Positions 2,956 to 61,880 of a stretch of DNA of 64,000 nucleotides are shown here, one piece after another; within the stretch, counting starts at the first letter, position 1, and each line of letters starts with the position of its first letter. A program made the translations under genes and the position numbers. The notes under the pieces are model-generated. The model was not told the DNA's origin, ran no database searches, and was given only the letters and a program-made list of their open reading frames with translations. Origin of the DNA: Narcine bancroftii (taxonomy: Eukaryota); contig NC_091474.1 in NCBI RefSeq assembly GCF_036971445.1, positions 170,686,001-170,750,000 of the forward strand, read 5' to 3'.

Positions 2956-4563
2956 GGAAGAGAGCTAAGATAATGTAGCTAATAGAGGGAGGGAGGGGGA
3001 TATTACCATTATTTTCCATATTTTGTATATTTTTCTTTTCTTTTTTATATATCTGTATTTTTGTTTCTTTGTAATATTTTATCATGGCTTGGTTCAGCAT
3101 CATGCTGAAGAAGATTGAAAAGAGGGTTGGTGCGAGAACACAGCCTTGCTTCACGCCATTGTTAATGGAGAAGGGTTCAGAGAGCTCATTGCTGTATCTG
3201 ACCCGACCTTGTTGGTTTTCGTGCAGTTGGATAATCATGTTGAGGAACTTTGGGGGACATCCGATGTGCTCTAGTATTTGCCAAAGCCCTTTCCTGCTCA
3301 CGGTGTCGAAGGCTTTGGTGAGGTCAACAAAGGTGATGTAGAGTCCTTTGTTTTGTTCTCTGCACTTTTCTTGGAGCTGTCTGAGGGCAAAGACCATGTC
3401 AGTAGTTCCTCTGTTTGCGCGAAAGCCGCACTGTGATTCTGGGAGAATATTCTCGGCGACACTAGGTATTATTCTATTTAGTAGAATCCTAGCGAAGATC
3501 TTGCCTGCACAAGAGAAACTTGTCCGTGAACTACTCTTTGCAGACGATGCCGCTTTAGTTGCCCATTCAGAGCCAGCTCTTCAGCGCTTGACGTCCTGCT
3601 TTGCGGAAACTGCCAAAATTTTTGGCCTGGAAGTCAGCCTGAAGAAAACTGAGGTCCTCCATCAGCCAGCTCCCCACCATGACTACCAGCCCCCCCACAT
3701 CTCCATCGGGCACACAAAACTCAAAACGGTCAACCAGTTTATCTATCTCGGCTGCACCATTTCATCAGATGCAAGGATCGACAATGAGATAGACAACAGA
3801 CTCGCCAAGGCAAATAGCGCCTTTGGAAGACTACACAAAAGAGTCTGGAAAAACAACCAACTGAAAAACCTCACAAAGATAAGCGTATACAGAGCCGTTG
3901 ACATACCCACACTCCTGTTCGGCTCCGAATCATGGGTCCTCTACCGGCATCACCTACGGCTCCTAGAACGCTTCCAGCAGTGTTGTCTCCGCTCCAACCT
4001 CAACATCCATTGGAGCGCTTTCATCCCTAACGTCGAAGTACTCGAGATGGCAGAGGTCGACAGCATCGAGTCCACGCTGCTGAAGATCCAGCTGCGCTGG
4101 GTGGGTCACGTCTCCAGAATGGAGGACCATCGCCTTCCCAAGATCGTGTTATATGGCGAGCTCTCCACTGGCCAGCGTGACAGAGGTGCACCAAAGAAAA
4201 GGTACAAGGACTGCCTAAAGAAATCTCTTGGTGCCTGCCACATTGACCACTGCCAGTGGGCTCATATCGCCTCAAACCGTGCATCTTGGCGCCTCACAGT
4301 TTGGCGGGCAGCAACCTCCTTTGAAGAAGACCGCAGAGCCCACCTCACTGACAAAAGGCAAAGGAGGAAAAACCCAACACCCAACCCCAACCAACCAATT
4401 TTCCCCTGCAGCCGCTGCAACCGTGTCTGCCTGTCCCGCATCGGACTTGTCTGCCACAAACGAGCCTGCAGCTGACGTGGACTTTTACCCCCTCCATAAA
4501 TCTTCGTCCGCGAAGCCAAGCCAAAGAAATATTTTATAAAATTCTTAAATAATTTTTTTTTAA
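2956..4563 (+). mobile_element. Short 5'-truncated retroposed 3' end (L1-like 3'UTR) with 14-bp TSD; hosts the RTE
   Basis: ATCCAGGTGCAACT is duplicated at 2942-2955 and 4564-4577. A G-tract followed by a T-rich tail resembles the L1 3'UTR at 60750-61000. Confidence 0.65.
3083..4527 (+). mobile_element. Young RTE-clade LINE, 5'-truncated with 5' inversion (3083-~3508 minus, ~3509-4527 plus)
   Basis: RT motifs QCGFR..DMVFALRQLQEK..DLTKAFD..GVKQGCVLAP on the minus strand; LLFADD, YLG and C-terminal CxxC on the plus strand. Tail GCCAAGCCAAAGA; TSD AATATTTTAT at 3073-3082 and 4528-4537. Confidence 0.93.
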
Positions 4564-6449: not shown

Positions 6450-7225
6450 AAAAACACACACACAAATGGTGGTCAAACAGTGCCTTTATGTAGCATCATC
6501 AACGTTTCGGGCTTGAGCACTTCCTCAAGGTGTGGGGGAACATGGGAGATGTCTGAACAAAAGGGGGAAGGGGAGGGGGGAGTGGTGAGGGTGGGAAATG
6601 ATAGGTGGGGGGGGGCAAGAACACAGCAGGAAGGGAGGAGGAGTCTAGGCTAGGTGGAGAGAGAAAGGAAGTAGGAACTAGAATAACTAGTTGGGGGGGA
6701 GGGGGGAAGGTAAGCTTATTAGTGGAATGTTCATGCCCTGGGATTGGAAGGTACCCAAACAAAAAATGAGGTGTTGTTCCTCCAATCTGCGGGTGGTCAG
6801 GGTGGGGTAGAGTGAAAGGCCATGGACAGAAATGTGAGCTTGAGGGTGTGACTCAGAATTGAAATGGTTGGCTATGGGGAAGCTGCTTTTATTGCGGATG
6901 GAGAGAAAGTGCTGGGCGAAGTGATCTTCTAATCTGCGATTGGTCTCTCCGATGTAGAGAAGGCCACAGATGTTGCACCGGATGCAGAATATGTGTTCTT
7001 TGGAGGTACAGGTGAAGTATTTCTTCACTTGAAAGGTCTGTTTGGGACCTCGGACTGTGGTGAGGGAGGAGGTGTGGGTGCAGGTATTACACCTCCTACG
7101 ACTACAGTGGAAGGTGCCGGGGGCGATGGGTGGGGAGGGAAGAGTGCACAAGGCAGTCTGGAGGGAGCGGTCCCTACAGAAGGCTGAGAGGGGAGGAGAA
7201 GGAAAGATGTGTCCTGCAATAAGTT
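6450..7225 (-). mobile_element. Penelope-like element: GIY-YIG endonuclease 3' part + pseudo-LTR with hammerhead-like motif
   Basis: GTFHCSRRRCNTC...FTCTS..IFCIRCNICGLLYIGETNRRLEDHFAQH (6687-7268); TTGAGGAAGTGCTCAAGCCCGAAACGTT at 6501-6528 on the minus strand. Confidence 0.85.
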
Positions 7226-7502
7226 CTGGAAAATTTTTGTATTGTATAGACAATGCACAAAACAGCAAAGCAAGATGACTGGCATAGATGACTGATTAAT
7301 TACAGCTTGTGTGTTAGCAAGAGAAGATGGATAGGATCAGAAATATTAATTATAGCATCTGGAGAAGCTTAGCTTAATTCTAAGATGGTAGGCAACTGCA
7401 GATTATTATACAATAGAAAAGTAATGACTGCATTGTAGTAAGTAGCATTTGGAGGTGGAATATGCTTTCTTGTGTGTTTATCATTCTTTAATTAAGGAAA
7501 GG

Positions 7503-8486
7503 TAAACTGGTTGACCGTTTTGAGTTTTGTGTGCCCGATGGAGATGTGGGGGGGCTGGTAATCATGGTAGGGAGCTGGCTGATGGAGGACCTCAGTTTTC
7601 TTCAGGCTGACTTCCAGGCCAAACATTTTGGCAGTTTCCGCAAAGCAGGACGTCAAGCGCTGAAGAGCTGGCTCTGAATGGGTCAACCAGTTTACCTATC
7701 TCGGCTGCACCATTTCATCAGATGCAAGGATCGACAATGAGATAGACAACAGACTCGCCAAGGCAAATAGCGCCTTTGGAAGACTACACAAAAGAGTCTG
7801 GAAAAACAACCAACTGAAAAACCTCACAAAGATAAGCGTATACAGAGCCGTTGTCATACCCACACTCCTGTTCGGCTCCGAATCATGGGTCCTCTACCGG
7901 CACCACCTACGGCTCCTAGAACGCTTCCACCAGCGTTGTCTCCGCTCCATCCTCAACATCCATTGGAGCGCTTACATCCCTAACGTCGAAGTACTCGAGA
8001 TTGCAGAGGTCGACAGCATCGAGTCCACGCTGCTGAAGATCCAGCTGCGCTGGATGGGTCACGTCTCCAGAATGGAGGACCATCGCCTTCCCAAGATCGT
8101 GTTATATGGCGAGCTCTCCACTGGCCACCGTGACAGAGGTGCACCAAAGAAAAGGTACAAGGACTGCCTAAAGAAATCTCTTGGTGCCTGCCACATTGAC
8201 CACCGCCAGTGGGCTGATAACGCCTCAAACCGTGCATCTTGGCGCCTCACAGTTTGGCGGGCAGCAACCTCCTTTGAAGAAGACCGCAGTGCCCACCTCA
8301 CTGACAAAAGGCAAAGGAGGAAAAACCCAACATCCAACCCCAACCAACCAATTTTCCCCTGCAACTGCTGCAATCGTGTCTGCCTGTCCCGCATCGGACT
8401 TGTCAGCCACAAACGAGCCTGCAGCTGACGTGGACTTTTTACCCCCTCCATAAATCTTCGTCCGCGAAGCCAAGCCAAAGAAAGAA
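7503..8486 (+). mobile_element. Young RTE LINE, 5'-truncated with short 5' inversion (7503-~7682 minus)
   Basis: Nearly identical to 3560-4527; TSD AATTAAGGAAAGG at 7490-7502 and 8487-8499; tail GCCAAGCCAAAGAAAGAA. Confidence 0.93.
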
Positions 8487-9150
8487 AATTAAGGAAAGGC
8501 TACTGGTCATTCCCACCAAAAGCTGTGAGGAGAGAGTGTCAAGGCTGACCAGGACAGTTTGGTATTCAAGGAAAGAATCAGAAAACAATTATTAAAACTT
8601 CTTAATGCATATTTTATGGAGACTAGCTTTTTATGCTCCATGCAGTGACCACTTCAAGAGACTAGCAATAAAGCTATTTGCCATATTTTCTGTCATTGTT
8701 TGGTTTCCCAAAGTGAATTATCATTGATATTAAGCAAAAGCATATGAGCAATTGCTGTGAAATTGTATGCCAAGTTCTTAGGGTCCTCCTTGTTTAACAA
8801 AAACAATGTCAGATCAGATGAATCTAGTACAGGTCAGAACATTCCAAGGAAATATTCAAAAACAAACCACAGACAAAACAATACTCAGTACTGTAAAAGC
8901 TGTGCAGCAGTGGGCCACTGACCTGTTTATTTTCAATAAGGTCATAGCTGATCATATGACTAACCTCAAATATGCATTGCCTTCAGTAATCATTTATCCC
9001 TCTATGTCTTCTGCTTCCTCGCTCTTTAAGGAAAAGACCTCCAAAGTCTCAGGTCCACTAGGACATTTATTTCCTGCTTCACCTCTGTTATAAATGGGAG
9101 ACAGGGAGTTTGTAAACGGTCACCACTTCTTCCACAAGTTCCCTTTAGGA

Positions 9151-9248
9151 CAGTGATTCTCAACCTTTTTCTTTCCACTCACATACGGCCTTAAGTAATT
9201 CTTTATTAACCACAGAGCACTAGGGCATCCTGTGGTTGGTAAAGGATG
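9151..9248. mobile_element. Left half of a hAT (Charlie-like) MITE, truncated at the start of the GC-rich array
   Basis: CAGTGATTCTCAACC terminus; homologous to 21633-21711 and 30276-30636. Confidence 0.7.
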
Positions 9249-10098
9249 AGGAAAGACAGCGTGGAACGCAATCTGACCAAAAAGTGTGAAGGCCAAGCGT
9301 ATTTTTAGGGTGAACGACTCGCGGATCTGAAAGGAATACACTAAGGTGGAGCCGAGGCACACTGAAGGCAATGCAGACCGCGTAGAGTGGCGTCCCCGCA
9401 GATCGGCCAGGAACACCAGAGCGTGGTGCGCAAGCACAATTGAAAAGTTAGCGACAGCAGGGAATGTTGACTGCATTGTCCAGTGAAGGGTCCAGCGGAA
9501 CTGATCGTCCCCAGGGGAAGTGCGCAAAGGGACCTGAAAGAGAAGACACTGCACGGAGCTCCAGGAACGTGCCCGAAGCGATGAAACCGAAACGAGCCTG
9601 GCAAGCCGAAGCAGGCACGGACCCGAAAGCAACACGCCAAGGGGGTGCGCGGGCGGCCCTGACAGGGTGGATGCAGCACGATAGTCCAGCGGACTTGAAA
9701 GGGAGGACGACGTGGAACGCGAATAACCCGCGGACCTGCAAGGAATCCGCTCGCGCGCTGCGTCGCGTGAAGATCCCGCTGATTGGAGGGATTACGCCCG
9801 GCTGGTGTTGTCAGCGGACCTGAGAGCGTGACGGATGATCGGCCAGTGGACCACAAGCGGACCTGAAAGAAACAGGCCAGGGCGATGCGCGTGCGCACTG
9901 AAGGCAATCCGGACCGCGTCGGGGGTGGGGTCGCGGCTCTGGCGAGCTGAAAGGGTCAAGCGTTGAAGGCGTCGCGCACCACGTTAAGGTGAGTCTTCTG
10001 CGGATCTGATTGGGGGTCGCCAGGTCGAAGGGAGCTGAAAGGGAAATGACAGCCCAGGGCCCCAGCCGACCTGAAAGGGTGAAAGCGAAACGGAGGAC
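9249..10098 (+). repeat. CpG-rich degenerate repeat/spacer array, core GCGGACCTGAAAGG, period ~36-43 bp (left part)
   Basis: Core variants start at 9321, 9357, 9398, 9434, 9495, 9528, 9617, 9653, 9689, 9730, 9814, 9857, 9893, 9941, 10000, 10029 and 10065, all on the + strand. Confidence 0.75.
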
Positions 10099-13000
10099 TG
10101 TCACATTTGTGGCCCGAAATGTGAAGTTAATAAAACATTAAACACTAGTTTATTAGGTAAACTTCTGAGTGTCTTTTATTCTCCTGTTTCCTTTGTTCTC
10201 CTGCTTGTGTTCTATCTCTCTCTCTCATACCACGTGACTTCCGGTATATCTCATACATATTCAATATCATGACATCCCTCCTTTAATCAGAAATAAACTT
10301 TACCTTCACTTACCAATATCCCTCGGAAACATACAAACATCGTAACTATTGGTAATACTATAACTCAACTACATAAAGTTTAATTCCTACAGCACTCATA
10401 CATGCACTTTATGATATAAGATTAAAATACTGTCCCAAAGTTCTTATTAAAACTATGGCACAAAGTCTTCGTATTGTTTGGGCACTTTCCGGTTTCGTTT
10501 CGGCCTGCCTGCGATATTGTCGTCGCTTCTCGGTTGTTCACTCTCAGCTTCGGAAATACTGCTTGCCACGGCTTCGAGTGTTTCTGGCGCTCTAGTCACT
10601 TCATCAGGAGTGCTGGTAACTGCCTCTGGAACATCATCAGGTCTCTCAGTTTCAGCATCTCGTATTGGCCTTTCAACCTCTTCGCTCGATGTATCTCTGG
10701 ACTGGTACCTTTTTACATCTGAGACATTTCTCTTATACAGGACTCCAGTCGGAGACTTGACTGTCACCATACTGCCACTTCTGGATACGACAGTATAGGG
10801 TTGATGGTAATAAGGTGTGTCTTGCTTACCACCAGTTTCATGCCTCACTAGAACATTATCTCCTGGCATGATGTCTGAGTACTTGGCTCCACGTTTCGAA
10901 TCTGTGTACAGCTTTGCTGCACCTTTCTTTTCAGCATCGTGGACCCTCATCTCCTGGTCGTCTCGGATTTCCTTTATTTCTGGCATTTTTGTGCGGATTT
11001 TTCTCCCAAAAAATGCTTCTGCAGGACTTTTTCCAGTGGTTGCATGAGGCGTTGCTCGATAGACAGCCACATAAGATAGCAATGTTTCACGCCAATTTTG
11101 TCCTTCTGCGTGTGCAATCCTCAATTGTTTTTCAATGGACTGATTTTGTCTCTCTACTTCTCCGTTGGCTTGAGGACATTTCGGAGTTACTTTATGATGG
11201 TGGATACCTGTGGTCCTCATGTATTCCACAAATGTCTCTGAAATGAATTGTGGACCATTGTCAGAGTATAATGTAACAGGTAATCCATATCTTGCGAATA
11301 TCTCTGCTAACGCTTGTATTGTTTTTTCAGTGATTGTGGACTTCAACACCACGTACTCATAGTATCTGCTGTAGTAATCTATCACTACCATAATTGATTC
11401 ACCCGTCGGTAAAGGTCCAAGAAAATCAACAGCTACGTCGATCCATGGTCCTGTCGGAAGTTGCGTACTCCGGATCGGTTCTGGCGGATTACTCCTACTT
11501 GTGATTTGACATCCATGACAAGTTTTAACAAATTTCTCTGCGTCTTTATCACAACTTGGCCACCATACCTTGGTTCTGAGGTTTTGCTCGGTACCAACAA
11601 TGCCTAGGTGTCCTTCATGCGCTAAGGATACGATGTTCGGTCTCAATCTTTGTGGTATCACCAATCTGCAACCTCTCAATACACACTGTCCGAGGCAACA
11701 AAGTTCGTCTCTAATGGGAATGTAAGCCTTGTGAGTACACTTGTCCCATTGTCCACTCTGTATGCATTATCTTACTTCCATGAGTTCTGGATCATGTTCG
11801 GATTCTCTCTCGACTTCCTTCGTAGTCACAGCTTTCAGTGTCGCCTGAATAGCTACGAAGCGTACAAAGCTCTCTGTTTCTGTTCCCAATTCTGACTTGG
11901 ATTGTGGACCTCCATCCTTCACCAATCTGGACAGCGGATCTGCAATGTTTGCTTTCCCTGCAATGTTGATTACTTTATATTTGTAGGGTTGTAGTCTGAG
12001 TACCCATCTCTCTATTCTGGCACATGGTTTGGATCTAGGTGCATAGATCACCTTTAATGGCTTATGATCTGTGATGAGTTCAAATTCAATGCCGTATAAA
12101 TATGCATGGAACCTCTCACAGGCCCATACAAGTCCGACTGCTTCTTTTTCTGTCTGAGAGTATCTTCTTTCCACATCTGATAACGATCTGCTGGCATAGG
12201 CAATGATTCTTGGTCCTCCATCATGCATCTGGACCAACACGGCTCCTAAACCAACCAGGCTGGCATCCGCTATGACTTTGGTTGATGCCGCCGGATCGTA
12301 ATATCCAAGAGTTTTTGCATCTGTCAGGCTTTGCTTCAGCGCTGTGAATGCTTTCTTCTGCTCAGATCCAAAATGAAATGGTACACTTTTCCTGGTTAGT
12401 TTCCTTAGTGGTTCTGCCACTGTAGCGAAATTAGGAATGAACTTTGCACAAAAATTGACCAATCCTAGGAAACTCCTCATCTCTGTTGCGTTCTGAGGTG
12501 CACGTGCCTCTGCAATAGCTTTCACCTTGGCCTCTGCAGGGTTTAGTCCTTTCCTTGTAAGTCTGTGTCCCATGAAGTCCATTTCTGACACACCGAACTG
12601 GCACTTGTTTCCATTCACGGTAAGACCTGCTTCCTGTAGTCTAGATAGTACACGCCTCAACCGTTTGTCATGCTCTTCCTTCGTTGGTGCATGGACTATG
12701 ATGTCATCAGAAATGTTGGCAACTCCAGGAATGCCTTGAATCACTCGATGGATTTCATACTGGTAGATCTCTGAAGCTGCATTAATTCCAAATGATAGTC
12801 TCTTGTAACGATACAATCCACAGTGAGTCACAAATGTTGTCACATCTCGGGAACCCGGATCCAGCTCTAATTGATGATAGCCCCATTTCAGATCAATTTT
12901 TGAGAATACCTTGCTGGTAGTTAGTTCTTGAAGTATTTCTTCCACTGTTGGTATAGGGTGTCATTCTCTAATTATAGCTTCATTGGCCATTCTCATGTCA

Positions 13001-14853
13001 ACACATAGTCTTATGTCACCCTTTGGTTTGGGCACAATCACTACTGGGCTGACCCATTGTGTCGAATGTTCCACCGGTTCAATAATGTCTTGTTCGATCA
13101 ATTCTTTAATTTTGGCTTCGACTTTCCCACGAAGTCCAAACGGAGTTCGGCGCATTGGTTGTGCCTTGGGTTTGACCGTTTCATCTACTGCTAGCTTCAA
13201 TTGTCGACCTTTCAGCTTTCCTACTCCTTGGAAGACTGCGGGGAATTCTTGCTTCATATCCTCGTATGACTGAATTGAATTGGCACAAGGTCCAATATGA
13301 AGTATTGCCAGGTCTTGCGCTGTGCTTCTACTCAGCAATGGTTCTCCCCTCTCTTCTATGACCATAAACTCTGCTTTGGTGTACTTATCTCCAGCTTCAA
13401 CAGTTGCAGTAAAACATCCAATGGTCTGCAATGGCTTGGTTGCTGTGTTTGGATACAGTTTCTTGGAACACTTCTTTGAGGTTCAGATGATCTTTTTCCT
13501 TTCCAACTTCTCCCATAAATGTCGATCAATCACATTACTGTCACTGCCTGAGTCTACAATGACCTGAACTGTCACTCCACCAATGATCACTAGGACCTTC
13601 TCATGACGTACTTCATTCAACATAAATTGGTAACAACTCTGTTCCTCCTGGGTATCATCATCGTCACCGTCTATCTGGCGAATGGTATCTTTCTTTCCAG
13701 GATACTTTCCTTTCCCCCAGGCTTTGCCTTTGGAAGTTGTACTCTTCCTCTTCTGGTCTGCATTGGACTTGCTTTTGCACTTCTTTGCAAAGTGGTCCTT
13801 ACCTCCACACTTTCTGCAAACTTTGCCTTTGGCCGGGCAATATGGGTCTTTTCCAAAGTGACCTCGGTTTCCACATCGATAACACTCCACATCCTGTGTC
13901 GACGTATATCTTGGCTGGTTATGGCGATGTGAGAGCCTCTTAATTTGCTGGCTTGAGTTGTCTTTCAGGGTCATGGTATGAAATTGCCCTTCAACAGCCT
14001 CTAATGCAGCAGCAATGGTTAAAGCATCGGTGAGTTCCAACTCACTCCCTCTTTCCAGTAGACGTCTTCTGAGTTTATCTGATCTGCAGTGCTGTACGAC
14101 TTGATCCAATAATTGGTTGTCCAAATCAGCTGGCATGTAATTGCATCCAACAGCTAGCTGACGTAGTCTCGTCACGTACTGAGCAATTGTCTGGCCATCT
14201 TCTTGTCTCGTTCTCCGAAACAAATGGCGTTGAAATGTAGCATTCGGTGTCACTACATAGTGTGCATTTAATGCATCTACCCCTTTCTGGTACTCATCCT
14301 TTCTTCCAGTATTCAAAAGTGTCTTAAATGTTTCCCGAACTGCAGGTCCAGCAGTGAAAAGAAGTAACGCCCTTCTCTGCGCTTTTTGTTCAACTGTACC
14401 GGTATCTAGAAATAGGCCACGACTGTTGGCGTAGGATTCAAATTCTTCCAGCCATGCCTTCCACTTCACACTTACAGTGCTTGCAACACCAGTCGGGTCA
14501 AAATGAGCAATTCCACTATGTGTTAGAAAGTCACTGTCTGCACCCGCCATGAGGAAATATTCCAGCCCCAAAAGTACTGAGACAAAGAGAAAATTCTTAT
14601 CACCTTGAAGTTGTCTGTAATCCTCTAATCTTGTTTAGTCTTTAATTTTCTTCAAGCTTCTTTCATGCTCGTTGCCAATGTCACATTTGTGGCCCGAAAT
14701 GTGAAGTTAATAAAACATTAAACACTAGTTTATTAGGTAAACTTCTGAGTGTCTTTTATTCTCCTGTTTCCTTTGTTCTCCTGCTTGTGTTCTTATCTCT
14801 CTCTCATACCACGTGACTTCCGGTATATCTCATACATATTCATTATCATGACA
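10099..14853 (-). mobile_element. Full-length young Ty3/Gypsy LTR retrotransposon
   Basis: LTRs 10099-10274 and 14679-14853 (TGTCA...TGACA, only 2-3 differences); 5-bp TSD AGGAC at 10094-10098 and 14854-14858. PBS TGGCAACGAGCATG lies next to the 5' LTR (near-complement of the tRNA-Ser(GCU) 3' end); PPT AAAGGAGGGA at 10275-10284. Confidence 0.97.
10453..14550 (-). pseudogene. Gypsy gag-pol (two CCHC knuckles, DSG protease, RT with ISDD, RNase H, integrase): single frame, three premature stops
   Basis: ORFs 13483-14571, 12961-13431, 11767-12945 and 10453-11679 are all in one frame, with stops at 13483, 12961 and 11767. Motifs: CYRCGNRGH..C, IVDSGSD, NISDDII, DASLVGLGAVL, HEGHLG..CHGC, SDNGPQF, ANGEVER. 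Confidence 0.95.
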
Positions 14854-14858
14854 AGGAC

Positions 14859-15105
14859 GAAGGCGAGAAAGGAATTCAGCAGGGTGGGGCGCGAGCGGAC
14901 TGGAGAGGGTGAAGGCCCCGCCGACTTGAAAGGAAGGTGCCGGGCAGGTGGGCAAGGTGATCTTAATGAAAGGCTGAGTGCCCCGGCGGCGCATGTGGGT
15001 TGATTGGCCAGTGGACAACATGGAGTGGCCCACGGAACTGAAAGGAAGGGGACATCCTGGAATGCAAGAGTATCTGAAAGGTGAAAGCAACACTGGCGAG
15101 CAGAG
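14859..15105 (+). repeat. Right part of the CpG-rich repeat/spacer array
   Basis: Cores at 14859, 14895, 14920, 14960, 15032 and 15068. GATTGGCCAGTGGACAACATG (15002) matches GATCGGCCAGTGGACCACAAG (9837). Confidence 0.7.
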
Positions 15106-15315
15106 GAAAGTTTAGGGGAGATGCTAGAGAGTTTTTTTTAAAACTCAAAGTGATGCATGCCTGGAATACAGGGTGGTGCTGGAAGCTGGTACGAAAGGGT
15201 CATTCAAAAGTCTCTTAGATAAGCATATGGATGCAAGAAAGATAGAGGTTATGGGTGTGAGTAGGTTTACATAGTCGACACAACACTATGGACTGAAGGG
15301 CTTGTACTGGATTGT
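15106..15315 (+). mobile_element. CR1 3' end fragment
   Basis: AAGTTTAGGGGAGAT..TGCCTGGAAT..CTCTTAGATAAGCATATGGAT..GGACTGAAGGGCTTGTACTG, typical of CR1 3' ends. Confidence 0.7.
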
Positions 15316-15324
15316 TCCACTTTC

Positions 15325-15560
15325 TTGGAGACAGAGTTCATTTCCTGAAGGACACAAGTGAATTTGATGGGGTTTTACAACAATCCTATAGTTGTTATGG
15401 TGATTACTAATAATACTGGTCGTTGTTGGAAATTACAGCTCATTAAATGAATGCAATACTTGCCACTTCAACTCCATGGAAAACGTATGCACTGTCCATT
15501 CACGCACTTGGAATCAATTGGGAATTCTGAGGCCAACACATTACAATAAGCAGGACGATT
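15325..15560 (-). mobile_element. Ancient Deu-domain SINE (SacSINE1/AmnSINE-like) remnant
   Basis: TTTCCTGAAGGACACAAGTGAA..GATGGGGTTTTACAACAATC resembles the Deu domain (recalled, not aligned). Confidence 0.45.
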
Positions 15561-15902
15561 GTTTTCTAAAATTAAGGCTGCCGAGCTTCTTGAAGGCCAA
15601 GAGAGATCAGTGGATTGAAGAGATTTCTTCATTGTTTCTTAATTTTTCTTCATGTCTCATCTCCTTCATTCAGGTGGCCATTAGATGAAGGTATTAAAAA
15701 TGCGGCTCCCATTCTGCTAATCCAGGCAGTTGCCATTTTAATTCACTTCAAAAACTTTACCAAGACTGTGCAGAAAATATTTACAATTTTATTAGCCCTG
15801 AGACCAAAAGCAAATAATTCTCCTTTGATTAAACTGTTGGTTTAATTGAATTGAGGTTTAAAATGTTATTTCCATCATTTGCTGTTGAAATAATATCAAG
15901 GT

Positions 15903-16118
15903 TGGGGTGGCCAAACCTGATTAATGTAAGAGCCACATATGACAAATTTCAGATGGTTGAGAGCTGCAAATATCACGTGATTGCAAGCCATACCCGCTAA
16001 AACTACTATTGTGAGCACCATCTGAGGATTCCTGCCTCAGCCAACATATTTCCGTGAGCCACACATTATGTGTTAAAGAGCCATATGTGGCTCGCGAGCT
16101 GCAGTTTGGCTACCCCAG
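15903..16118. mobile_element. hAT MITE (same family as 27676-27864, opposite orientation)
   Basis: GGGGTGGCCAAAC...GTTTGGCTACCCC termini; GAGCC/GGCTC subterminal motifs. Confidence 0.75.
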
Positions 16119-16129
16119 TCTATGACATT

Positions 16130-16812
16130 GACAATGAGGTTTAAATCGGGTTTAGTGGGTTCACAGAGAAGTGAGACCAAGCACAGGCTAACAAGGCTAA
16201 CAAACAAAGGATGATTTTTATTGTATACATGGGGAAATCGTAACAGGGAAGACACAAACGAACACTTGATACTAAAACAATATAGGCATTCACATTGGAT
16301 ACAGCAATCTCCAATACGAGTGACTGCCTACTCTGTCTCTCTTTATTACACATGTGCAGTAACTAGCAAACTCTTACAAGGCAGGGACTTCAACACACAC
16401 TCCTGATTCCTTGTACGAATAGGGGGGTGCAGTTAAATGCTATGTATTCCCATGCAAAACTGCAGTCCCGCTTTAAGTGCATGCCTTACCAACGATTCCT
16501 TCAGCGATGTCCACAGTTTGTGACCTGGCATAGAGCAGCATTTGTAATCAGTACCAAGGAGCAAAGAGAATGATCTGCAGCACATGGTAGGCTTTTAAAG
16601 TGAAGTGAGCTGGGGAGTCTGGCCTAGGTAATCACTACGTGATTTAAAGGGGCCATTGGGCAGGTGTGCACTAATGGGTGAGCAGAGCCCAGGGCAGGTG
16701 ATGTGACCTCTGACTAGGTTCCAGATGGAGAGGTCATATGACCCTCCACAATCCACTTTCCCACTAAGTTCCAGATGGAGAGGCCACATAACCCTCCACA
16801 ATCCACACTACA
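16130..16812 (-). mobile_element. Probable solo LTR with an internal ~40-bp direct repeat
   Basis: Starts TGTAGTG on the minus strand; AATAAA (minus) at ~16217; GTTCCAGATGGAGAGG..ACCCTCCACAATCCAC occurs twice (16718, 16768). No clear TSD. Confidence 0.45.
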
Positions 16813-17589
16813 ATGCTAAAGCAACATTTTCCTGAGGATGGATCTCGGTCAAAAGTGCTGTCCAGAATACTCCGTTCTGCAAAGGGGAGGCATACTGCTA
16901 ACTGTCTCACAGTTAATATCCACTGAACAGTGGATCATCTTGCTCATTTCAATCCAAGTACTTTTCAAATTATGTAATTAATATTAATTGCTGCCATGAA
17001 ATCCTCTTGCAATTCAAGCACCAACAGTAAATTCCTCTGTGATATCCAAATTCAGGGCACAAGTTTGGAATGTTATTCATAGACAGCACCTGGAGTTTGG
17101 TGAATTTGCTGTGCCCCATTTGTTTGGTAAATAGGCACATGTTCTAGATCTTAGAAGAATACAGTTCATCAGGGATCAATGTTCACACTGCAGGCATAAA
17201 TGAGGTAACTTGGTGGTTAGAGCTTCAATCAAATTTATTTGAAGGATGGTGATGCTGTAGCTCAAGTCTCAGATTGAAAAGCTGAACATTGCTGGGCTTT
17301 GACAGTATTCTCCTTGATCAATATTTTGCTCAGTGCAAAAAATATATTCTTTTGAACGAGAAGAGCAAACTGAACAATGAGACTATGGATAAACAGAGAC
17401 ATAAATGAACAATGAAGGGGAAGGAAAGAAGGGTATCTTAACTGCATTGAGAGTAGAGTACATTGTTCTCAAGTCATAGAACATGGAAACAGGCCGTTGG
17501 GCTACCACATCCATACAATTACATTATCCAGTACCTGCCTGAATCAAATGAAGTACTCATCCAGGAACTTCTTAAATGGTGTCTCTATA

Positions 17590-18654: not shown

Positions 18655-18835
18655 GATAAACACACAAATTCTGGAGAAATTCAACAGATCAAACAGTGCT
18701 TTTATGTAGCAAAGGTAAAGATACATCACCAATGTTTCGGGCTTGAGCCCTGCATGGCCTGCTGAGTTTCTCCAGCTGTCTGTCTTTTTACTTAACCACT
18801 TTATCAACAGAATCCTGTGTTTTACCTCTTCAAAT
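18655..18835. mobile_element. Penelope-derived short non-autonomous (pLTR) fragment
   Basis: CTGGAGAAATTCAACAG..GTTTCGGGCTTGAGCCCT followed by inverted CTGCTGAGTTTCTCCAGC; related to 6470-6530, 25060-25160 and 38085-38230. Confidence 0.6.
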
Positions 18836-19627
18836 TTCCGTGCATTATCCTCCATTTTTTTCTGTTTAATTTACCTTTCTAATACTCTCATAGAAAGTCA
18901 TGCCTTCACTACTGTTGCCAGCAGCAAATTCCATGCACTCACCACTCTCAGTGTGAAAAATGTACCTCGTACTTCTTACACTCCCCCCCCCCCCTCCCTG
19001 TTCTTACTCCCAAGCAGCTTAAAGCTATGTCCCTCATGTTAGCCATTTCAGCCCTAGGAAAATGCCTCTGGCTATCCACAGTCAATGCCTCTCATCATCT
19101 ACCAGGTCACCCCTCATTCTCCATTGCTCCAAGGAGAAAAGACTAAGTTCACTCAACCTATCTTTGTAAGGCATGCTCTCCAGGCAGCATCCTTGTAAAT
19201 CACCTCTGTACTCTCTCTATAGTATCCACATCGCTTCCTGTAATATGGTGACCAGAATCGAACACATTATTCCAAGTGGGATGAAACTAAGGTCTTATAT
19301 AGATGCAACATTTCCTCACAGCTCTTGAACTCGATTCCATAGTTAATGAAGGCTAATATGTCTTCTTAGTAACATTATCAACCTGTTCAGCAGCTTTGAA
19401 TGTCCTGTGTGGTCATGGATCCTAAAATATCCCAGTCCTTGGACAATACTCAGTCCTCTCATTAATATTGTATTCTGCCTTCAAAATTTCACCAACCAAA
19501 ATGAACCACTTCACCCTTTTCTGAGTTAAAATTCATCTCCCACTGCTTAGCCCAGTTCTGCATCTTATTAATGTCCATTTGTAATCTTTGGCTGCCCTCC
19601 AGACTATCTGGAGGGCATCTACAACCA

Positions 19628-19977
19628 TAGACAGGGTGAAGTCGGATTACTTGTTCCCAGTGATGGGGGAGACGAGGACTAGAGGGCATAGTTTAAGAAT
19701 ACAGGGTAGGCCCTTTAGGACGGAGATGAGAAAACATTTTTTTACCCAGAGAAGTGTGAATCTGGGGAATGCTCTGCCACAGAGGGTGGTAGAGGCAGAT
19801 TCGCTGATTATGTTCAAAAGAGAGTTAGATAAGACTCTAGTGGGCAAAGGAGTTAAGGGTTATGGGGATAAGGCTGGAAAGGGGTACTGATGGTAGTGAT
19901 CAGCCATGATCTGTAAAATGGCGGTGCTGGCTCGACGGGCCGAAGGGCCTACTCCAGCTCCTATTGTCTATTGTCTA
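19628..19977 (+). mobile_element. Young CR1 3' end with (CTATTGT)n tail, antisense inside an older CR1
   Basis: TRTRGHSLRIQGRPFRTEMRKHFFTQR; tail CTATTGTCTATTGTCTA; near-identical to 36859-37210 (reverse). Confidence 0.9.
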
Positions 19978-21600: not shown

Positions 21601-22059
21601 CCCAAATTATGTCAGGAAACCTTCCTGAACATAGGATGCCATAGGTGCTCTGTGGTTATTCAGGGATTAAGGTGGTATATGAGTATAAAGAAAAAAAAGT
21701 TGAGAACCACTAATCTAAACCCTTCACTCTAAGATGGTGCCAATCAATATTAGGAAAGTTAAAATCATCCTTCACAAGAACTTTATAATTTTTGCACCTT
21801 TTTCAAATTTCTCCCCCCCCCCCCCCCCCCACCTTGAGGTCTCTGTTACTATTGGGGGAGGGTTATAATATACACTCAGTAGGGTTATTGCCTCCTTGCT
21901 GTTCCTGACTTCCACTCACTGACTCAATAGACAGCCCCTCCACTACTTCTGCTGATGTGATAGTATCCCTGATCAGTAGTGCCATTCCCCCACTTCTTTT
22001 ACCTCCCATCTTATCCTTATTGAAACATTTAATAGTATACATTAAATTGCCCCAGTACA

Positions 22060-22900: not shown

Positions 22901-24182
22901 GCTGTAGTTCTGAGGAATCCTACTGATGCTTTTTGGAGAGAGAAATGAATGGAGGGTCATGCTGATAAATATTTGCAAGGAAAGACAGGAGGAAGTTCCA
23001 GTGGTGTACAAATTATCGACTTGACCGATGGTGAAAAATAGCCTTTTACTGTGCAATTTATCTGTACCATTTTTGTTTTGAGTTAAGCTTGGTTCTCGGG
23101 ATGTGGGGAATATTTGGAATTTTAGAGTTAGCCGTGATCCTTTCATACCCTCAGTGGAATGCTTTCTCAATGTAAAAGCTGCAGTCTCAGAGCAGTGTGG
23201 AATTTGGAGCATCACTTTCCTTTCAGTCAGCTGCAATTGCCCGCATGTTGGAGAAGAAGGTGTGAATGGTATTGTTGCTGATGTGCTAAGTGCAAAAATG
23301 CAGCAAGCATTATCATTCGTCCAGCTGTGGTTCAAATTTTGTATGGAGGGCAACAAAAGGCACAGCAATGAAAATTGATTATTGCTCTGGTGATGTCTCA
23401 TTCTGTCAAAAAGAAGTATCATAAAAGTTTGAACTCTACTTCCACTTCATATTAAATAAATTTAATTTATCATGTACATTTAAATTAATTCTACCAAAAT
23501 TATGCTTTTTATTTAATCAATTCAATGAAATAATTGAAATCCATCAAGCAAATAAAAAAAGTGATTTAAGTCGTTTTCATGGCGTCATGTAACTAATATC
23601 CACAAGAGGTCACTAATTGTATATGAGCAGCAACATAGGTGTATAATAATTCAACACAATCCATTTTTTTGAAGAATTTTTCCTTCCTTTCCCAAAATAA
23701 CAGGTATTTAAATTTGCTTCCAATTACATCACTATCTTCGAACATCATCTTTCTTCATATTGGATGTGTGATTTTGAGGTCTATTTAATTGAGGTAATAT
23801 ACAACATATTTACTGCACTCTATTCTATTTTGTATTGTGATCTTGTGATTCAGTCTCACTTTTATCATTGAGTTCTACCTTGCCATACCACTGTGAAAAT
23901 CTTCATTAATGGTTAGGTAAACATGTGGTGGATAAACATATAACAGAGAGATTTCCTGCAGATTATTTGAACTACAGCAGTCAGAAATTTATAAATAAGC
24001 AATGAAACAATGGGAGCTCTCTCGATTTTAGTGGAAAAACAACAAGTAATTCAAAATAAAAATCATATAAAGGACACACATGTAAGTGAACGCATGCGCA
24101 TGCACCATTTAGTGATCAAAAGTAAAACAATATTGCTTGGAAATTGGATCAGATATACTGTACTAAATCATTGTATTTAGAC

Positions 24183-25035
24183 CAGGGGTCTCAAGCTTGC
24201 GGCCCGCGGGCCAACTGCGGCCCTCGGGACGATAGTTTGTGGCCCCGCCTTAATATGAAAGTTTAATGTTAGTGAGGCCCGCGAGTTTGATATGATTGGC
24301 ACTTTTCAGTGTTGTGTGCGGAGCTGAACGAACCTACCAATCACAGTGGGGTATATTGCTCTCGGGGGCGGGACATTGGCTGGGCTTATTGCGAATATAA
24401 GCATATTTGTGTGCATTTTCTATTTGTCATTATATGCACGCGGCACATGCGCAATTTCCGCAGCCGCTCCCGCTTCACGCGCTTCGGCGCGTGAACTTCA
24501 ATAAGTCCAAGGTACAGGTCCAGACTTACTGACGAGCATCTTCAAGCCCTACTGAGGGTCTCAACTGCCTCCTCCCTTAAGCCAAATGTGGCTCGGCTAT
24601 GCGAGAGGAAGCGCTGCCAGATCTCTAGCAGTAAGAAGTAGGCAGAAGAAGTTGTTCATAACAGTTTATGTTCAATGTTCAATGTTCCATGTTCCATTCA
24701 TGTTCAGAAAGTTAAAGGTTAAAGAACTGTTAATACAGACATTTGAATCTGAATAATAATAATTACAATAATTACATTTCTCCAGTCAGCAACTATATGT
24801 GGTTTCTTCAGTCTTCTATATTATTTTCATTTTATTTATTACTGATTGATTTTTTTTTCTTATGAATTGTTAATTTATTTTCATCTTATTTTGTGTTTAA
24901 AAAAAAATAATAACGACATTTGATAACATTGGAATGTTTTTGTAAGAGCTTTTCTTGTGGAAAACCTGATGCGGCCCAGCCTCACCCAGACTCTACCTCC
25001 AGCAGCCCCCGGGTAAATTGAGTTTGAGACCCCTG
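24183..25035 (+). mobile_element. Internally deleted hAT (Charlie/SPIN-like) DNA transposon retaining the transposase C-terminus
   Basis: TIRs CAGGGGTCTCAA / TTGAGACCCCTG; perfect 8-bp TSD ATTTAGAC (24175-24182, 25036-25043); GCGGCCC subterminal repeats; RSRLTDEHLQALLRVSTASSLKPNVARLCERKRCQISSSKK* at ~24514-24641. Confidence 0.92.
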
Positions 25036-25054: not shown

Positions 25055-25465
25055 TTGAGACAAAAATGCTGGAGAAACTCAGCAAGTCACACAGCATACT
25101 TTAAGTAGCAAAGATAAAGATACATAACCATTGTTTCAGGCCTGAGCTCTTCATCAAGGTATGAGGAAAATGCAGACAGGCATCTGAATAAAATGGTGGG
25201 GGAGGGACAGAGGCAGAGCACAAATCCACAGGCAAGAAGTCATAGGTGGATATGGGTGGAAGGGGACAAGAGAAAAGAGATGAGAAGTGATAGGGGAAGT
25301 GGATAGCTCTGAATGGAAAGAGAAGGGGGAGAGCTGGAGGGAAGGGGACAGAAGGATGGAGAAGAGATGGAGATGGAAGACTGATCTAACAGAAATCGGA
25401 GAAGTCAATTTTAATGCCATCCAGTTGGAGAGTGCCTCGTTGGAATATTAGGTGTCATTCCTCCA
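25055..25465 (-). mobile_element. Penelope-like 3' fragment
   Basis: Homologous to 6470-6790; CTTGATGAAGAGCTCAGGCCTGAAAC on the minus strand. Confidence 0.75.
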
Positions 25466-25760: not shown

Positions 25761-27675
25761 GTGAGGACTCCACACTAGCCTGTAAGAGACTGGTGCAGAC
25801 AAACTGACGTTCATCTTGAAGAAACTACTGGCATTTTGGTCCTGATACTTTGGTGATTCTTTTTGTACCAGCCAATATAATGGGGGAATGCACTAATCAG
25901 CTGTGGAAGCAGGGTATAAGCCTTGTGCCACAGGATCCATACTTCAGCGAAGGGTTGACTGTTGCCTGGCACTGTGGACTCTCTTGGGATGGAGTCAGGA
26001 GTGCACCCTAGAAACATTGCATTCACCCTGCGGAAATTCTTCTGATCCACAACTCATGAATATCCTGTCAATAAAAATGTCTGTGTCTTTCATGGGAGTC
26101 CTTGCAATACTAGGAAGCTGGCAAATCCCAGAGCTACATTCTCCTCATTGAAATTAAAATAGATTAAATAATTTCTTCATCAACTCTCTGATGCTGAAGA
26201 GAGCAAGAAATTGGGAGGAATAGTCACGGTGCTGGGAGTTATCCTATGACAAGGAAAATTTGGGGTCAGCTTGACTTTGATGTCATGAAGAGAACAGCCC
26301 AAGCGTGAAATCATGCCACATATTTCAGTGATGACTGCCTTGGAAATATGGTGTCTGCCAATATATTGGAGAGGTCCAGTTAGAATGTTGTGTCTTTGAA
26401 ATCTATGGGAAAGGTTTCTTTACACAGGGACATATCTTTGCCTGCTGTCTTAATGCCCCTTGTTCCAATGCCATTACAACAGCCATATAAATCCAGGGAT
26501 AGATGGTGTCAATGAGACACTATTGAGGTAGCAATTGCACGAGCATATCAGACGCTAAATACAGGAGAACATCTTCACTGTTTACTGTAGTAAACATTGG
26601 AAGTTGTTTGAGTAGCCTACAGTGGAGGGACAGTGGATAATCACCTTAAAAAGCAAAAATCAGAAGGATTTGTCCTTAGTTCTACTGAGATTGTTTCTGC
26701 GTGTTGAATTTTCAATCTTTGCTTCAATTTACGAGAGTATCATCAGAAAAGGACATTGTGTGTACTGTTGCATTGTTAATGCAGATCTAAAATGGAGGAA
26801 GGATTAGGCATGCCAGCATGGATCACAACAGGAAGTCTACTATTGTTACCTGGAATTGATTGATAGCATGGTGTGTAATCAAAACTGAATTGCATGGTTT
26901 TAGGCCAACTTCTAGACATAAAATTGGAAACTAAAACTTTGCTGTGCTTTTTCTTTGTCCTTTGTTATCCTTGCATGAATTTCCTACTCAATTTTCATCT
27001 GTTTTGCAATCAAATCCAGCAAAGGGCAGATTGGATGCCTGAAACAAACACTTTCCTGAACTCTTTGAGTATAACTAATCAAACAGTGGGAATTCCTGAC
27101 AAAAACTTTGAAAATACATTTTCCTTTGATTTTCAATAATGTAGCCTTATTTGATGATAATGAGCTAAATTTGAAAGTAATTGATTTTCACGTATAACTA
27201 AGTAAATGACACCCTTTGAATGCCTCCTCGCTTACGCTTTACAGAGAATGAGTAAAATCTGCAACAATTATGTCTGGTTAATCCTTAGTTTAACAATTTT
27301 GACAGGCACATGTGCGTGACGATGCCACAGAGGTGTTATACATGTCCAGGATGCGTGCCTGCTATTGAAGTTAGATGCATTACATTTGCAATTCAGAGGT
27401 CTGACATCTGTTGCAACCTCCTTTGTGCCTATAACTGGAATACATGCTGCTTCATTCTTTTATAATCTGTTCTCTGAAAGGCAAGATAGTTAGCGCTACA
27501 CAGGAGACTGCAGATGCGGGAATCTGAAACCAAACACAATCTGCTAGAGGAATTCAGCGAATCAAGCCACCAACTGTGTGAAGGTAAGAAAGTTTTGTTT
27601 TCATTCCATCACTCCCCTCCAACCCACAACTGCCTGCTCTACACCACACTCTGATCTTTCTGAAACACTTTAATA

Positions 27676-28102: not shown

Positions 28103-29259
28103 CTCGATTCTGGCGTTAACCTCTTTTGGCATGCATATTGCATTGGGATTCTGCCTGGTTCCAATTCCTTGACCCCAAAAGTGTCAGGAAGTGTTATTAA
28201 ATAAAGAATGAATTAATGATCAACAGAAAATATATTTTACTCATATATTTAACTATTCCAATTAAAATGAATACAATTGCTCCGTTGCTCTTCAATGTAG
28301 TTTTGTATTCTCTCTGTTGCCTTTTAACTAAACTTCCTCTTGTATTAGACTGGTCTATGCTCAGTCCAGCCCACTGCCTGTGCTCAGCAAACCGACCTGC
28401 TGGTCAGTCCTTTGTTATCCTTGCATGAATTTCCTACTCAATTTTCATGGGACAAGCTGTACAGCAGACATCTTTTCTGCAGTCCTTCTGCAATGCAGAT
28501 TATGACCAGACCTCAGGGAGTGAAACCTGAGGCCCTACACCAACTCTCATCCTAACAACTTTTAACAAGACTGACAATATTGCTGACTCCCAAAACCCAT
28601 GACAAGGCGCTCATTTGTTGTAAGTGACCAAATCCTGATTAATTTATCTTCCTGGATTTAAAGACTGTCTGCATCACTTAAAATAAAGGAACATTGAGGC
28701 CCAGTAGGATTGCTGGCAAAAATGAATGGGAATGGTATAAGAAATATTGGACCCCTTGACATTTTGAGGTTGCTCTGTACTTTTTAATGAATGTAATAGA
28801 GAGCGATGACCGTTTTCTTATAGAGACTAGGGGATCCTCCAGACATTCACAGGAAGAGCAGTAGAAGAGGGGTCAGATGAGAGGTTACTGTGAGAAAAGC
28901 AGCCCAAAATCCAGGGTCCAATAATTTCACACACAAGCTCAAGGTGAATAATAAAACTACAAATGTCACACCCTTACCTCACGACTTCCACACACCTTCA
29001 TCTATTCAACCATGGAATAAGACTTATTGAAACACATACTACAAATTCATTAATTAATTTCCCTGTTTCAGGACAAGGCAGCATTGTCAATGAACTGCTA
29101 AAGAACAGAGACAATGCATTGTTTGAGCACGGTGGAGGAGGAAATGTAGGGAAATTCATGGCCCAAAGTGCTGCTGAAAGCACTGAATTTGATTATGTTC
29201 TCACCTAATTCCCCTTGTTTCCCATTTCCCCCGCATCCTATTCTTTCTTTTGAATCAGA

Positions 29260-30275: not shown

Positions 30276-30636
30276 ACTCCTTGAACCATTTTCTTTCCAC
30301 TCAGAAACTACTTTAAGTATATCCTATGCCATAGGTGCTCTGTGATTAGTAAGGGATTGCTTAAGGCGTTATGTGGGTGGAAAGAAAAAGTTTGAAAACC
30401 ACTGTTTAAATCGTACCTAATTGACTCGTTATGTGCATGATTTCATAACTCCAAAGGAAATGGGCTAATGACAATTTTTCTCAAGCAAAAGATTTCAGTA
30501 GCAATTGGGCCTAGAGCTGTGATTCTCAACCTTCACTTCCCACTCACATACCTCTTTAAGCAATCCCTTTCTAATCACAGAGCACCGATGGCATAGGGAT
30601 ACTTAAAGTGGTATGTGAGAAAGGTTGAGAACCACT
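30276..30636. mobile_element. Composite of two inverted hAT MITE units around a ~110-bp spacer
   Basis: Unit 1 (~30276-30404) ends GAAAACCACTG; unit 2 (30517-30636) runs CTGTGATTCTCAACC...GGTTGAGAACCACT. Internal ATGCCATAGGTGCTCTGTGATTAG vs its complement CTAATCACAGAGCACCGATGGCAT. Confidence 0.75.
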
Positions 30637-34984: not shown

Positions 34985-35203
<219 letters not shown>

Positions 35204-38065: not shown

Positions 38066-38494
38066 ATATATCTTTATAAAAACACAATAAATGCTGGAGG
38101 AACTCAACAGGTTACGCAGCATCCTTAGGAGGTAAAGATATGTAATGAATGTTTCAGGCCTGAGCTCTTCAAGTTCCTCCAGCATTTTTGTGTCTTTACA
38201 ACACAGCTTCTGCAGACTTTTGTGTTTCACTCTCAACAATGGCCCATAAGGTTGATGTTGATGACATGGATTCAATGATGGTCATGCCACCGAATGCCTA
38301 ATCGTGTGATTGTCTCATTGGAAATAGTCATTATGTAGCTCTAGTGCATGGACAGACAGTTTTCATATCAGAATGTTGATAGATGTGAATGTTAAAGCAG
38401 TTCATGATGTTTGAGCTCTAGGCATTGCTCTGAGGAACTTCTATAGTGTCAGATGTTTGATATCTATCAAATACCTGCCAGAAGAGTAATCTTT

Positions 38495-61294: not shown

Positions 61295-61880
61295 CTGGCG
61301 CAGACTGGGAGGTAGTTTCCCTGAGCACCTTTGCTCTGTCCGCACCAGTGACAGAGACCTCCCAGTAGCCACTATTTCAGGTCAGTGTCATACTCCCATA
61401 CTCACATGTCTGTCCATGGCTTTATGTACTATCCCGCCCTGACCTCCCATAAATTGGACGAACAACACCTGATTTTTCCACATGGGCCCTCTTCAGCCAG
61501 ATGGCATTAACTGACTTTTCTGGTTTCTGCTAACCTGCTCTCATTTTATCCCCCTTCCCTTCCCTCTTCCAGTTCTCCTCCCTCTTTTCCCTCTCTATTC
61601 ACCTAGCTATCCCTCCCCTTACTTGCTGCTGTCCCCTCCCTCCCTTCTCCAGCTATTACCTCCTGCCTTTGTAACCACGCCTCCCCACCTACTCTTTTAT
61701 TTGGACGTTTGCTGACATTTTTTCCATACCTTGAGAAAAGAGGTCAAGGCAAAAATGTCGGTGATGTATTTTTACCTTTGCTATATAACGGACATTGTTT
61801 GACCTGCAGAGTTTCTCCAGCATTCTGTTTTTACTTCAACCATGGTGACTACAGATTTTCCTGTTTTAACTTCCACAATG
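61295..61880 (+). mobile_element. Penelope-like 3' fragment
   Basis: CCCAGTAGCCACT.TTTC..CATGTCTGTCCATGGC..GAACAACACCTGATTTT, homologous to 6740-6900 (reverse); pLTR tail. Confidence 0.75.

Follow-up and report, generated by a model that had tools for sequence, protein, structure and literature searches.

A decayed hierarchical minisatellite with retained CpG, split by a young Gypsy element, in the Narcine bancroftii genome

In a 64,000-nucleotide stretch of the Narcine bancroftii genome (NCBI RefSeq assembly GCF_036971445.1, contig NC_091474.1, positions 170,686,001 to 170,750,000 of the forward strand; hereafter the window, with positions counted from its first letter), a CpG-rich block of about 1.1 kb lies on both sides of a Gypsy retrotransposon. 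An initial annotation had described it as a series of conserved 14-bp cores separated by variable spacers. We find that the block is an old compound minisatellite of about 30 head-to-tail 36-bp units, with at least two unit subtypes and nested duplication, which has been eroded by substitutions and short indels and was later hit by the Gypsy element (Table 1). We judge it highly probable that the block is a hierarchical minisatellite in decay and not an array of repeats and spacers. Its ancestry is a separate matter, on which the retention of CpG and a bias in the placement of mismatches within triplets offer differing degrees of guidance.

Tandem architecture of the block

The Gypsy element was correctly recognized inside the block: its long terminal repeats (LTRs; 10099-10274 and 14679-14853) differ at only 3 of 176 positions (98% identical), both copies of the AGGAC target-site duplication (TSD) are in place, and Pfam matches cover gag, zinc-knuckle, protease, reverse transcriptase, RNase H and integrase. 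Its gag-pol is carried by four abutting open reading frames (ORFs) in the same frame, with three stops between them and 4.2 kb free of frameshifts. Excision of this element in silico leaves a block of 1111 nt.

The core was said to recur more than 20 times, always on the + strand. The strand bias stands, in that at up to three mismatches there are 16 matches on the + strand and none on the - strand (shuffle mean 0.2, maximum 2). The count above 20 is reached only at up to five mismatches, where 23 matches on the + strand are joined by three on the - strand and shuffles already yield 7.8; exact copies of the core as first written are absent. All the 36-bp start-to-start spacings that had been listed are present, the cores at 9357 and 9893 each being one base short. 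When the excised block is compared with shuffles, lag 36 attains a z-score of 4.8 at k=1, where the family-wise maximum of the shuffles is 4.2, and of 5.7 at k=4, where that maximum is 4.6; at k=5 its value of 4.8 lies below the shuffle maximum of 6.7. Hence, the periodicity is significant at the first two settings and not at the third.

The description of the spacers as largely unique does not survive. Across 253 pairs drawn from 23 units, ungapped spacer identity is 35.6%, as opposed to 28.2 +/- 0.6% in shuffles and 27.6% at random positions, a value above all 300 shuffles, and 35 pairs are at least 50% identical (shuffle mean ~6). The spacers are thus homologous. A wrap-around alignment, using a profile trained on 12 of the units themselves, resolves 9306-15110 into 32 rows, of which the first and last are partial, with a score of 282 against 17-22 in 10 shuffles; its columns comprise 1009 matched, 36 inserted and 99 deleted, giving about 30 units of 36 bp. 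In a held-out test, a profile of nine left-side units scores the right half at 51.5 (at most 25.5 in 30 shuffles). Above the level of the unit, two colinear higher-order copies, the second of them interrupted by the Gypsy, are 73.8% identical across 321 columns, with an alignment score never reached in 1000 permutations of the unit order. Further internal resemblances connect 9249-9269 with 9700-9720 and 14991-15054 with 9826-9879, and the best internal copies are only 72-83% alike.

The spacers fall into unit subtypes (A-type and B-type). The five closest A-type units have spacers 61% and cores 63% identical, figures that are biased by the choice of these units for spacer likeness, while 12 in-register units have 43% pairwise identity in spacers and 70% in cores. 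Even after simulated ascertainment, preservation of the core exceeds what uniform decay would give (difference 0.30, P 0.007-0.023). The initial annotation had named spacers that align as uniformly diverged copies of one unit as the mark of an ordinary minisatellite; the spacers do align as diverged copies, but their divergence is not uniform, the core and the CpGs being better kept. This better-kept core could be explained by subtype history, by DNA-level selection or by codon-level selection.

Tandem Repeats Finder (TRF) does not report the array, which is why it looked unlike a minisatellite. The array is accordingly a worked example of how a false repeat-spacer appearance can arise, from a minisatellite too diverged for TRF and with subtypes that make the spacers seem unique. 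A head-to-tail unit in the range of 10-60 bp covers the block, and its units are related to one another between the cores as well. GC-rich compound (variant-repeat) minisatellites of vertebrates combine units of 10-60 bp, a G-rich strand, a better-kept core, variant subtypes and nested higher-order duplication. The array is like them in its head-to-tail unit, G-rich strand, better-kept core, interspersed subtypes and nested duplication, and unlike them in being far more diverged (mean 53% between units), in its lack of recent homogenization, in its undepleted CpG and in the triplet bias between its duplicates.

Table 1. Coordinates of the array, its subdivisions and adjoining features in the window
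Feature	Position	Strand	Remark
Left part of decayed 36-bp compound array	9256-10098	+	Parse continuous from 9306
Right part of same array	14859-15102	+	Left-side profile score 51.5
Higher-order copy 1	9310-9706	+	Colinear with copy 2
Higher-order copy 2, Gypsy-interrupted	9846-14937	+	Colinear with copy 1
Young Gypsy LTR retrotransposon	10099-14853	-	176-bp LTRs; gag-pol
Gypsy TSD AGGAC, left copy	10094-10098	+	5 bp
Gypsy TSD AGGAC, right copy	14854-14858	+	5 bp
Palindromic miniature inverted-repeat transposable element (MITE) fragment without right end, left flank	9147-9247	+	75-84% identical to 21630-21719, 30326-30405, 30519-30585
8-bp direct repeat, left copy	9248-9255	+	Candidate TSD (weak) or microhomology
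8-bp direct repeat, right copy; also first bases of CR1 remnant	15103-15110	+	P ~0.04
5'-truncated decayed CR1 long interspersed element (LINE) 3' end, right flank	15103-15310	+	nhmmer E 1e-6, profile of five other CR1 copies of the window
RCAN (calcipressin) last coding exon	34988-35146	-	Pfam Calcipressin E 2.8e-10; ~20 kb from block

Retention of CpG and a possible coding past

The excised block is 60% GC and holds 89 CpG, with an observed/expected ratio (o/e) of 0.96 against 0.27 for the rest of the window, which bears out the reported contrast with CpG-depleted surroundings and makes it the strongest among nine CpG-island-like stretches of the window. Its left part has 76 CpG per 843 nt (o/e 1.03) and its right part an o/e of 0.66. 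In aligned unit pairs CpG is retained in 25% and has TG/CA partners in 22%, as against 4% and 56%, respectively, in 13 control pairs of old repeats from the window. Simulated decay in place to ~50% unit identity, with 6- to 15-fold CpG transitions, gives an o/e of 0.17-0.47, whereas the observed 0.91 fits a simulated CpG transition factor of 1-3. The array units have diverged with far less methyl-CpG loss than the old repeats nearby, and the distance of the observed o/e above that of simulated methylated decay suggests that methylation was largely absent meanwhile, whether they were then in a donor or in a CpG island that has lasted. Some methylated history is nevertheless visible in the higher-order pair, which keeps 45% of its CpG and has transition partners at 16% of CpG versus 5% of GpC. 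As the nearby young RTE copies and the Gypsy still stand at an o/e of 0.58-0.74, a recent import would require no special protection. The low transition/transversion ratio (0.73 versus 1.27) is not used as evidence, since saturation could account for it.

The only positive mechanistic signal is that of a coding past, because of a triplet bias and the ratios of nonsynonymous to synonymous differences (pN/pS); this signal was found after several tests. Between the higher-order copies, the least saturated comparison, mismatches by triplet position number 10/76, 23/75 and 30/75 (13, 31 and 40%), with a column permutation P of 0.002-0.008 across three aligner settings. The bias holds for A, C and G, and for T only at position 3, and it persists when CpG sites are set aside (P 0.008-0.019) and within long blocks without gaps (to P 0.024). 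Two frames sharing a wobble position have a pN/pS of 0.58-0.62, compared with 0.9-2.5 in the other four. One of them, on the minus strand with units ending like PFRSA, displays the classical order of second < first < third codon position; with respect to pN/pS, the plus-strand frame that overlaps it (ADLKG) does just as well, and an in-frame TGA common to three B-type units on the plus frame reads as His on the minus frame. The unit length of 36 is itself a multiple of three, corresponding to 12 codons.

We tentatively favor, at somewhat short of an even chance, the proposal that the block is a frameshift-riddled relic of a 12-codon repeat from a CpG-unsuppressed donor, be it a mobile element, a virus or a parasite, that came to rest with a broken MITE on one side and the 3' end of a CR1 on the other. 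The array grew by nested duplication, from 36 bp to A+B pairs and then to a block of 0.3-0.4 kb, and most of the divergence between units would have taken place outside the present methylated locus, in a donor without CpG loss (a DNA virus, a parasite or the lineage of an active mobile element). In that donor it may, more conjecturally, have coded for a 12-residue repeat. A fragment of ~1.1 kb would then have been captured, before the Gypsy arrived, at a break that severed the MITE and abuts the 5' truncation of the CR1, and it would since have gained many frameshifts, presumably making nothing today. The abrupt edges against broken transposable elements (TEs), together with the lack of any internal copy above ~83%, favor the import of an already diverged array.

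Several lines of evidence weigh against this proposal. The permutation P for the pN/pS is 0.05-0.17, and beyond the higher-order pair the codon bias expected of a pseudogene of a 12-residue repeat keeps its direction in wider unit sets without reaching significance: the triplet test gives P 0.20 and 0.17 for 23 and 14 units, 0.18 for 12 units (0.09 stratified), 0.27 for six disjoint pairs and 0.08 for three gap-free pairs, and parsimony on a tree of 16 units gives 0.06 (directional) and 0.23 (undirected). The higher-order copies are also separated by many indels (18 per 84 substitutions, against 72 per 601 in controls), and the six of the 18 that are multiples of three are no more than chance. 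Stops are not depleted in either frame, and for each candidate frame the core contains an invariant fourfold site that looks like DNA-level conservation. The earlier statement that there is no consistent ORF also holds: open frames of 120-223 aa exist but drift through the unit frames, which are broken and of low complexity. In database searches, a plus-frame repeat profile run against 1.84 billion representatives found only two unrelated 11-residue repeat proteins, two ORFs compared with 5.8 billion proteins found no relative, and Pfam, PHROGs, NCBIfam, PDB and Atlas returned nothing usable; no donor was found in the collections searched. We took the weak matches to DUF2505 (E 0.024), phrog_31776 (E 0.01), CaATP_NAI (E 0.076) and PDB 2he2 (E 0.12) as chance.

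At the nucleotide level, searches of phage, plasmid and GTDB collections were empty: blastn and tblastn each gave 0 and 0 matches, and two strict exact patterns, the form in which GTDB was covered, likewise gave 0 and 0. Within the 64 kb, blastn of the block yielded self matches only, and neither it nor the unit profile found another copy of the array. The literature covered, mostly outside subscription journals, held no description of this repeat. Should the donor be found, the array would gain in importance: a CpG-unsuppressed and possibly coding repeat without a known relative would point to an unrecorded virus, a parasite transfer or a retroelement module in sharks and rays.

Edges of the block and competing origins

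On its left, the block follows a MITE fragment which, from its termini, we take to be hAT-like, and whose missing right arm turned up neither in the block nor in 14854-17500. On its right, it meets a CR1 remnant whose translation resembles CR1 ORF2 C-termini. Of the earlier statement that terminal inverted repeats, LTRs and TSDs are all lacking, the first part agrees with our reading of both ends, where neither inverted termini nor poly(A) were seen; but an 8-bp direct repeat brackets the block and is the sole exact match of at least six bases between the junction windows (P ~0.04 from shuffles). A hAT or other DNA transposon would have terminal inverted repeats along with an 8-bp TSD; here the 8-bp repeat stands without visible inverted termini, which speaks against such an identity. 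Of the four options that the initial annotation offered, that of a fragment from an unknown mobile or foreign element is the best fit.

A non-coding promoter or leader module of a retroelement is a possible but doubtful source. This would be a CpG-island monomer array like the rodent L1 5' untranslated region (UTR) or the leader repeats of fish retroviruses, bereft of its ORFs, or else a composite of the variable number of tandem repeats (VNTR) type with the CR1 tail, and the core would be a protein-binding site, in keeping with its better preservation than the spacers. The retrovirus SSSV is said to have a 37-bp leader repeat. Matches to textbook consensus motifs comprise an NRF1 site at 9886-9897 (P 0.0025), three CCAAT boxes on the - strand (P 0.011), three interferon-element-like GAAANNGAAA sites at 9583, 10037 and 10081 (P <0.0005) and a splice donor at 9986-9994 (P 0.03). 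However, 18 motifs were tried post hoc to obtain these five nominal matches; two of the three GAAANNGAAA sites are mutual duplicates, and this motif is lost in most of the homologous spacers. The option of an array of protein-binding sites, which rests on such post hoc motifs, may hold.

The region at 1-1228, whose translation we take to be that of an L1-like 5' region with an ORF1 remnant, is similar to the block in GC and G skew over its first 540 nt (59% GC, CpG o/e 0.58), but the 36-bp unit profile finds no match at 1-540. As described in PMC5381506, mammalian L1 5' UTRs have a GC content of 52-62%, 31-94 CpG and tandem motifs; the array is like them in its ~60% GC, dozens of CpG and tandem duplication, and unlike them in having no ORF1 after it and no recognized YY1-type start, and in that L1 monomers measure 70-650 bp. 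The same paper portrays fish L1 5' UTRs as short and GC-poorer, which speaks against such a source. A further precedent is ZFERV, for which PMC3382231 gives a 517-bp region of nine direct repeats; compared by description only, the likeness lies in a direct-repeat block of ~0.5 kb in a fish retroelement and in the splice-donor consensus of the array, which is without LTR, primer site or gag. Indeed, no ORF1, gag, LTR or recognized primer site adjoins the block, the flanks being a MITE fragment and a CR1 3' end with a broken tail and an eroded terminus, and the triplet bias would go unexplained.

We regard it as unlikely that the array is the visible part of a mobile or viral element of cartilaginous fishes not described before, whether as an endogenized gene for a 12-residue Cys/His/Pro-rich repeat protein that has no relative in the sequences searched or as an SVA-like VNTR module travelling with a CR1 3' tail. 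SVA composite retroposons carry a GC- and CpG-rich VNTR of ~36-bp units upstream of a retroelement-derived 3' part. The array, too, has CpG-rich ~36-bp units ahead of a retroelement 3' part; it differs from SVA in being a single copy within the 64-kb window, in lacking poly(A), in the decay of its CR1 tail and in a direct repeat that excludes this tail. If there were such an element, in either form, a family of dispersed genomic copies would be expected.

A native minisatellite that arose in place as a long-unmethylated CpG island, and that may serve as promoter or enhancer for the gene after RCAN, appears quite unlikely. Lasting lack of methylation would explain the CpG retention, with its simulated factor of 1-3; the block is the strongest island of the window and contains promoter-type motifs; and the RCAN exon is nearby, enpp5 being given as the neighbor of rcan2 in PMC3896409. 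Against this stand its abrupt edges, both against broken TE pieces, the Gypsy in its middle and the lack of any ENPP-like exon in a motif check of the window.

Template jumping or partly untemplated synthesis from neighboring CR1, MITE or Penelope-type RNA, another of the options first raised, retains very little probability. The block fuses directly to the CR1 5' truncation with 8 bp in common, and short CR1 words resemble the core (best window-scan z 7.3, inflated by core repetition; z 2.4-2.8 for two of six CR1 copies). Under proper nulls, however, none of the three profiles (unit, core, spacer) matches CR1 (P 0.06-0.72 by profile; 0.10-0.93 over nine copies), blastn gives self matches only, and the regular 36-bp period with nested duplication is unlike a scrambling product. 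Derivation from the CR1 3' region, which by eye had some appeal, was rejected on the failure of that z of 7.3 and because a protein profile of 38 CR1 C-termini matched no part of the array; derivation from the Penelope-type hammerhead repeats is likewise unsupported (one of five at P 0.04; no nhmmer match in the array). None of the local CR1, MITE and hammerhead-type templates tested thus lends support to this origin.

An assembly or polishing artefact, which the high indel density within the array might suggest, is highly improbable because the Gypsy inside the array is clean, with a 5-bp TSD and no frameshift over 4.2 kb, and the array keeps its register from one side of it to the other; moreover, the differences of 26-47%, with many transversions, are far above read error.

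The single-strand bias and better-kept core also recall an RNA array cleaved at its short hairpin cores, whether CRISPR-like (clustered regularly interspaced short palindromic repeats) or ribozyme-like, a suggestion of the initial annotation that is scarcely credible given homologous spacers, fold z-scores of -1.0 (+) and +0.25 (-) for 9249-10098, no consensus structure, a 2-bp stem without compensatory change whose pairs are no better than shuffles, and neither an Rfam match nor a CTGANGA hammerhead core in the array. The likeness to CRISPR arrays is confined to the ~36-bp period and the one-strand motif: here the repeats are 30% divergent (cores 70% identical pairwise in the 12 units), the spacers are mutually related and the setting is eukaryotic and TE-rich. 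The absence of nearby cas genes, for which the name CRISPR had been withheld, is confirmed for the 20 of 74 long ORFs and eight further segments scanned, which contain retroelement domains and Calcipressin only, bar one weak domain of unknown function.

Surrounding genes and repeats

According to the background literature (PMC5210030, PMC3747384, 10.64898/2026.10.27.761883, 10.1101/2025.06.08.657570), batoid genomes are dominated by LINEs of the CR1 type, and regions rich in tandem repeats have a higher GC content. The 64-kb window is rich in TEs, with pieces of RTE, L1, CR1, Penelope-type elements and MITEs. Some of these family names are our presumptive assignments. The RCAN exon is presumably that of RCAN2, and a motif check found no further RCAN exons in the window. 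There are also no tRNAs in the window, and no bacterial promoter or terminator was found.

Two young RTE-type 3' fragments (3558-4529 and 7497-8483), 97% identical and each with an inverted 5' piece, form with the Gypsy a cluster of young insertions within 11 kb. A dispersed repeat family of ~100 bp is represented at 6455-6530, 18657-18758, 25057-25159, 38081-38176 and 61736-61834; three of its members have a minimal-hammerhead-like motif, and together with a GIY-YIG ORF remnant at 6690-7295 these repeats are consistent with Penelope-type elements. At 24180-25035 lies a young CpG-rich non-autonomous element (o/e 0.86-0.97), which we assume from its ends to be hAT-like; a match to the array core within it, at 24318 with three mismatches, is not significant. 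An identical 42-bp direct repeat, its copies at 26957-26998 and 28407-28448 being 1.45 kb apart, is unexplained.

CR1 3' remnants number at least nine in the window and belong to several subfamilies. The best named matches of a CR1 ORF2 fragment at 37105-37610 are from Callorhinchus and Chiloscyllium (66-69%). Two of the CR1 3' ends, at 19627-19977 and 36860-37208, are 95% identical, and the second retains an open frame of 221 aa.

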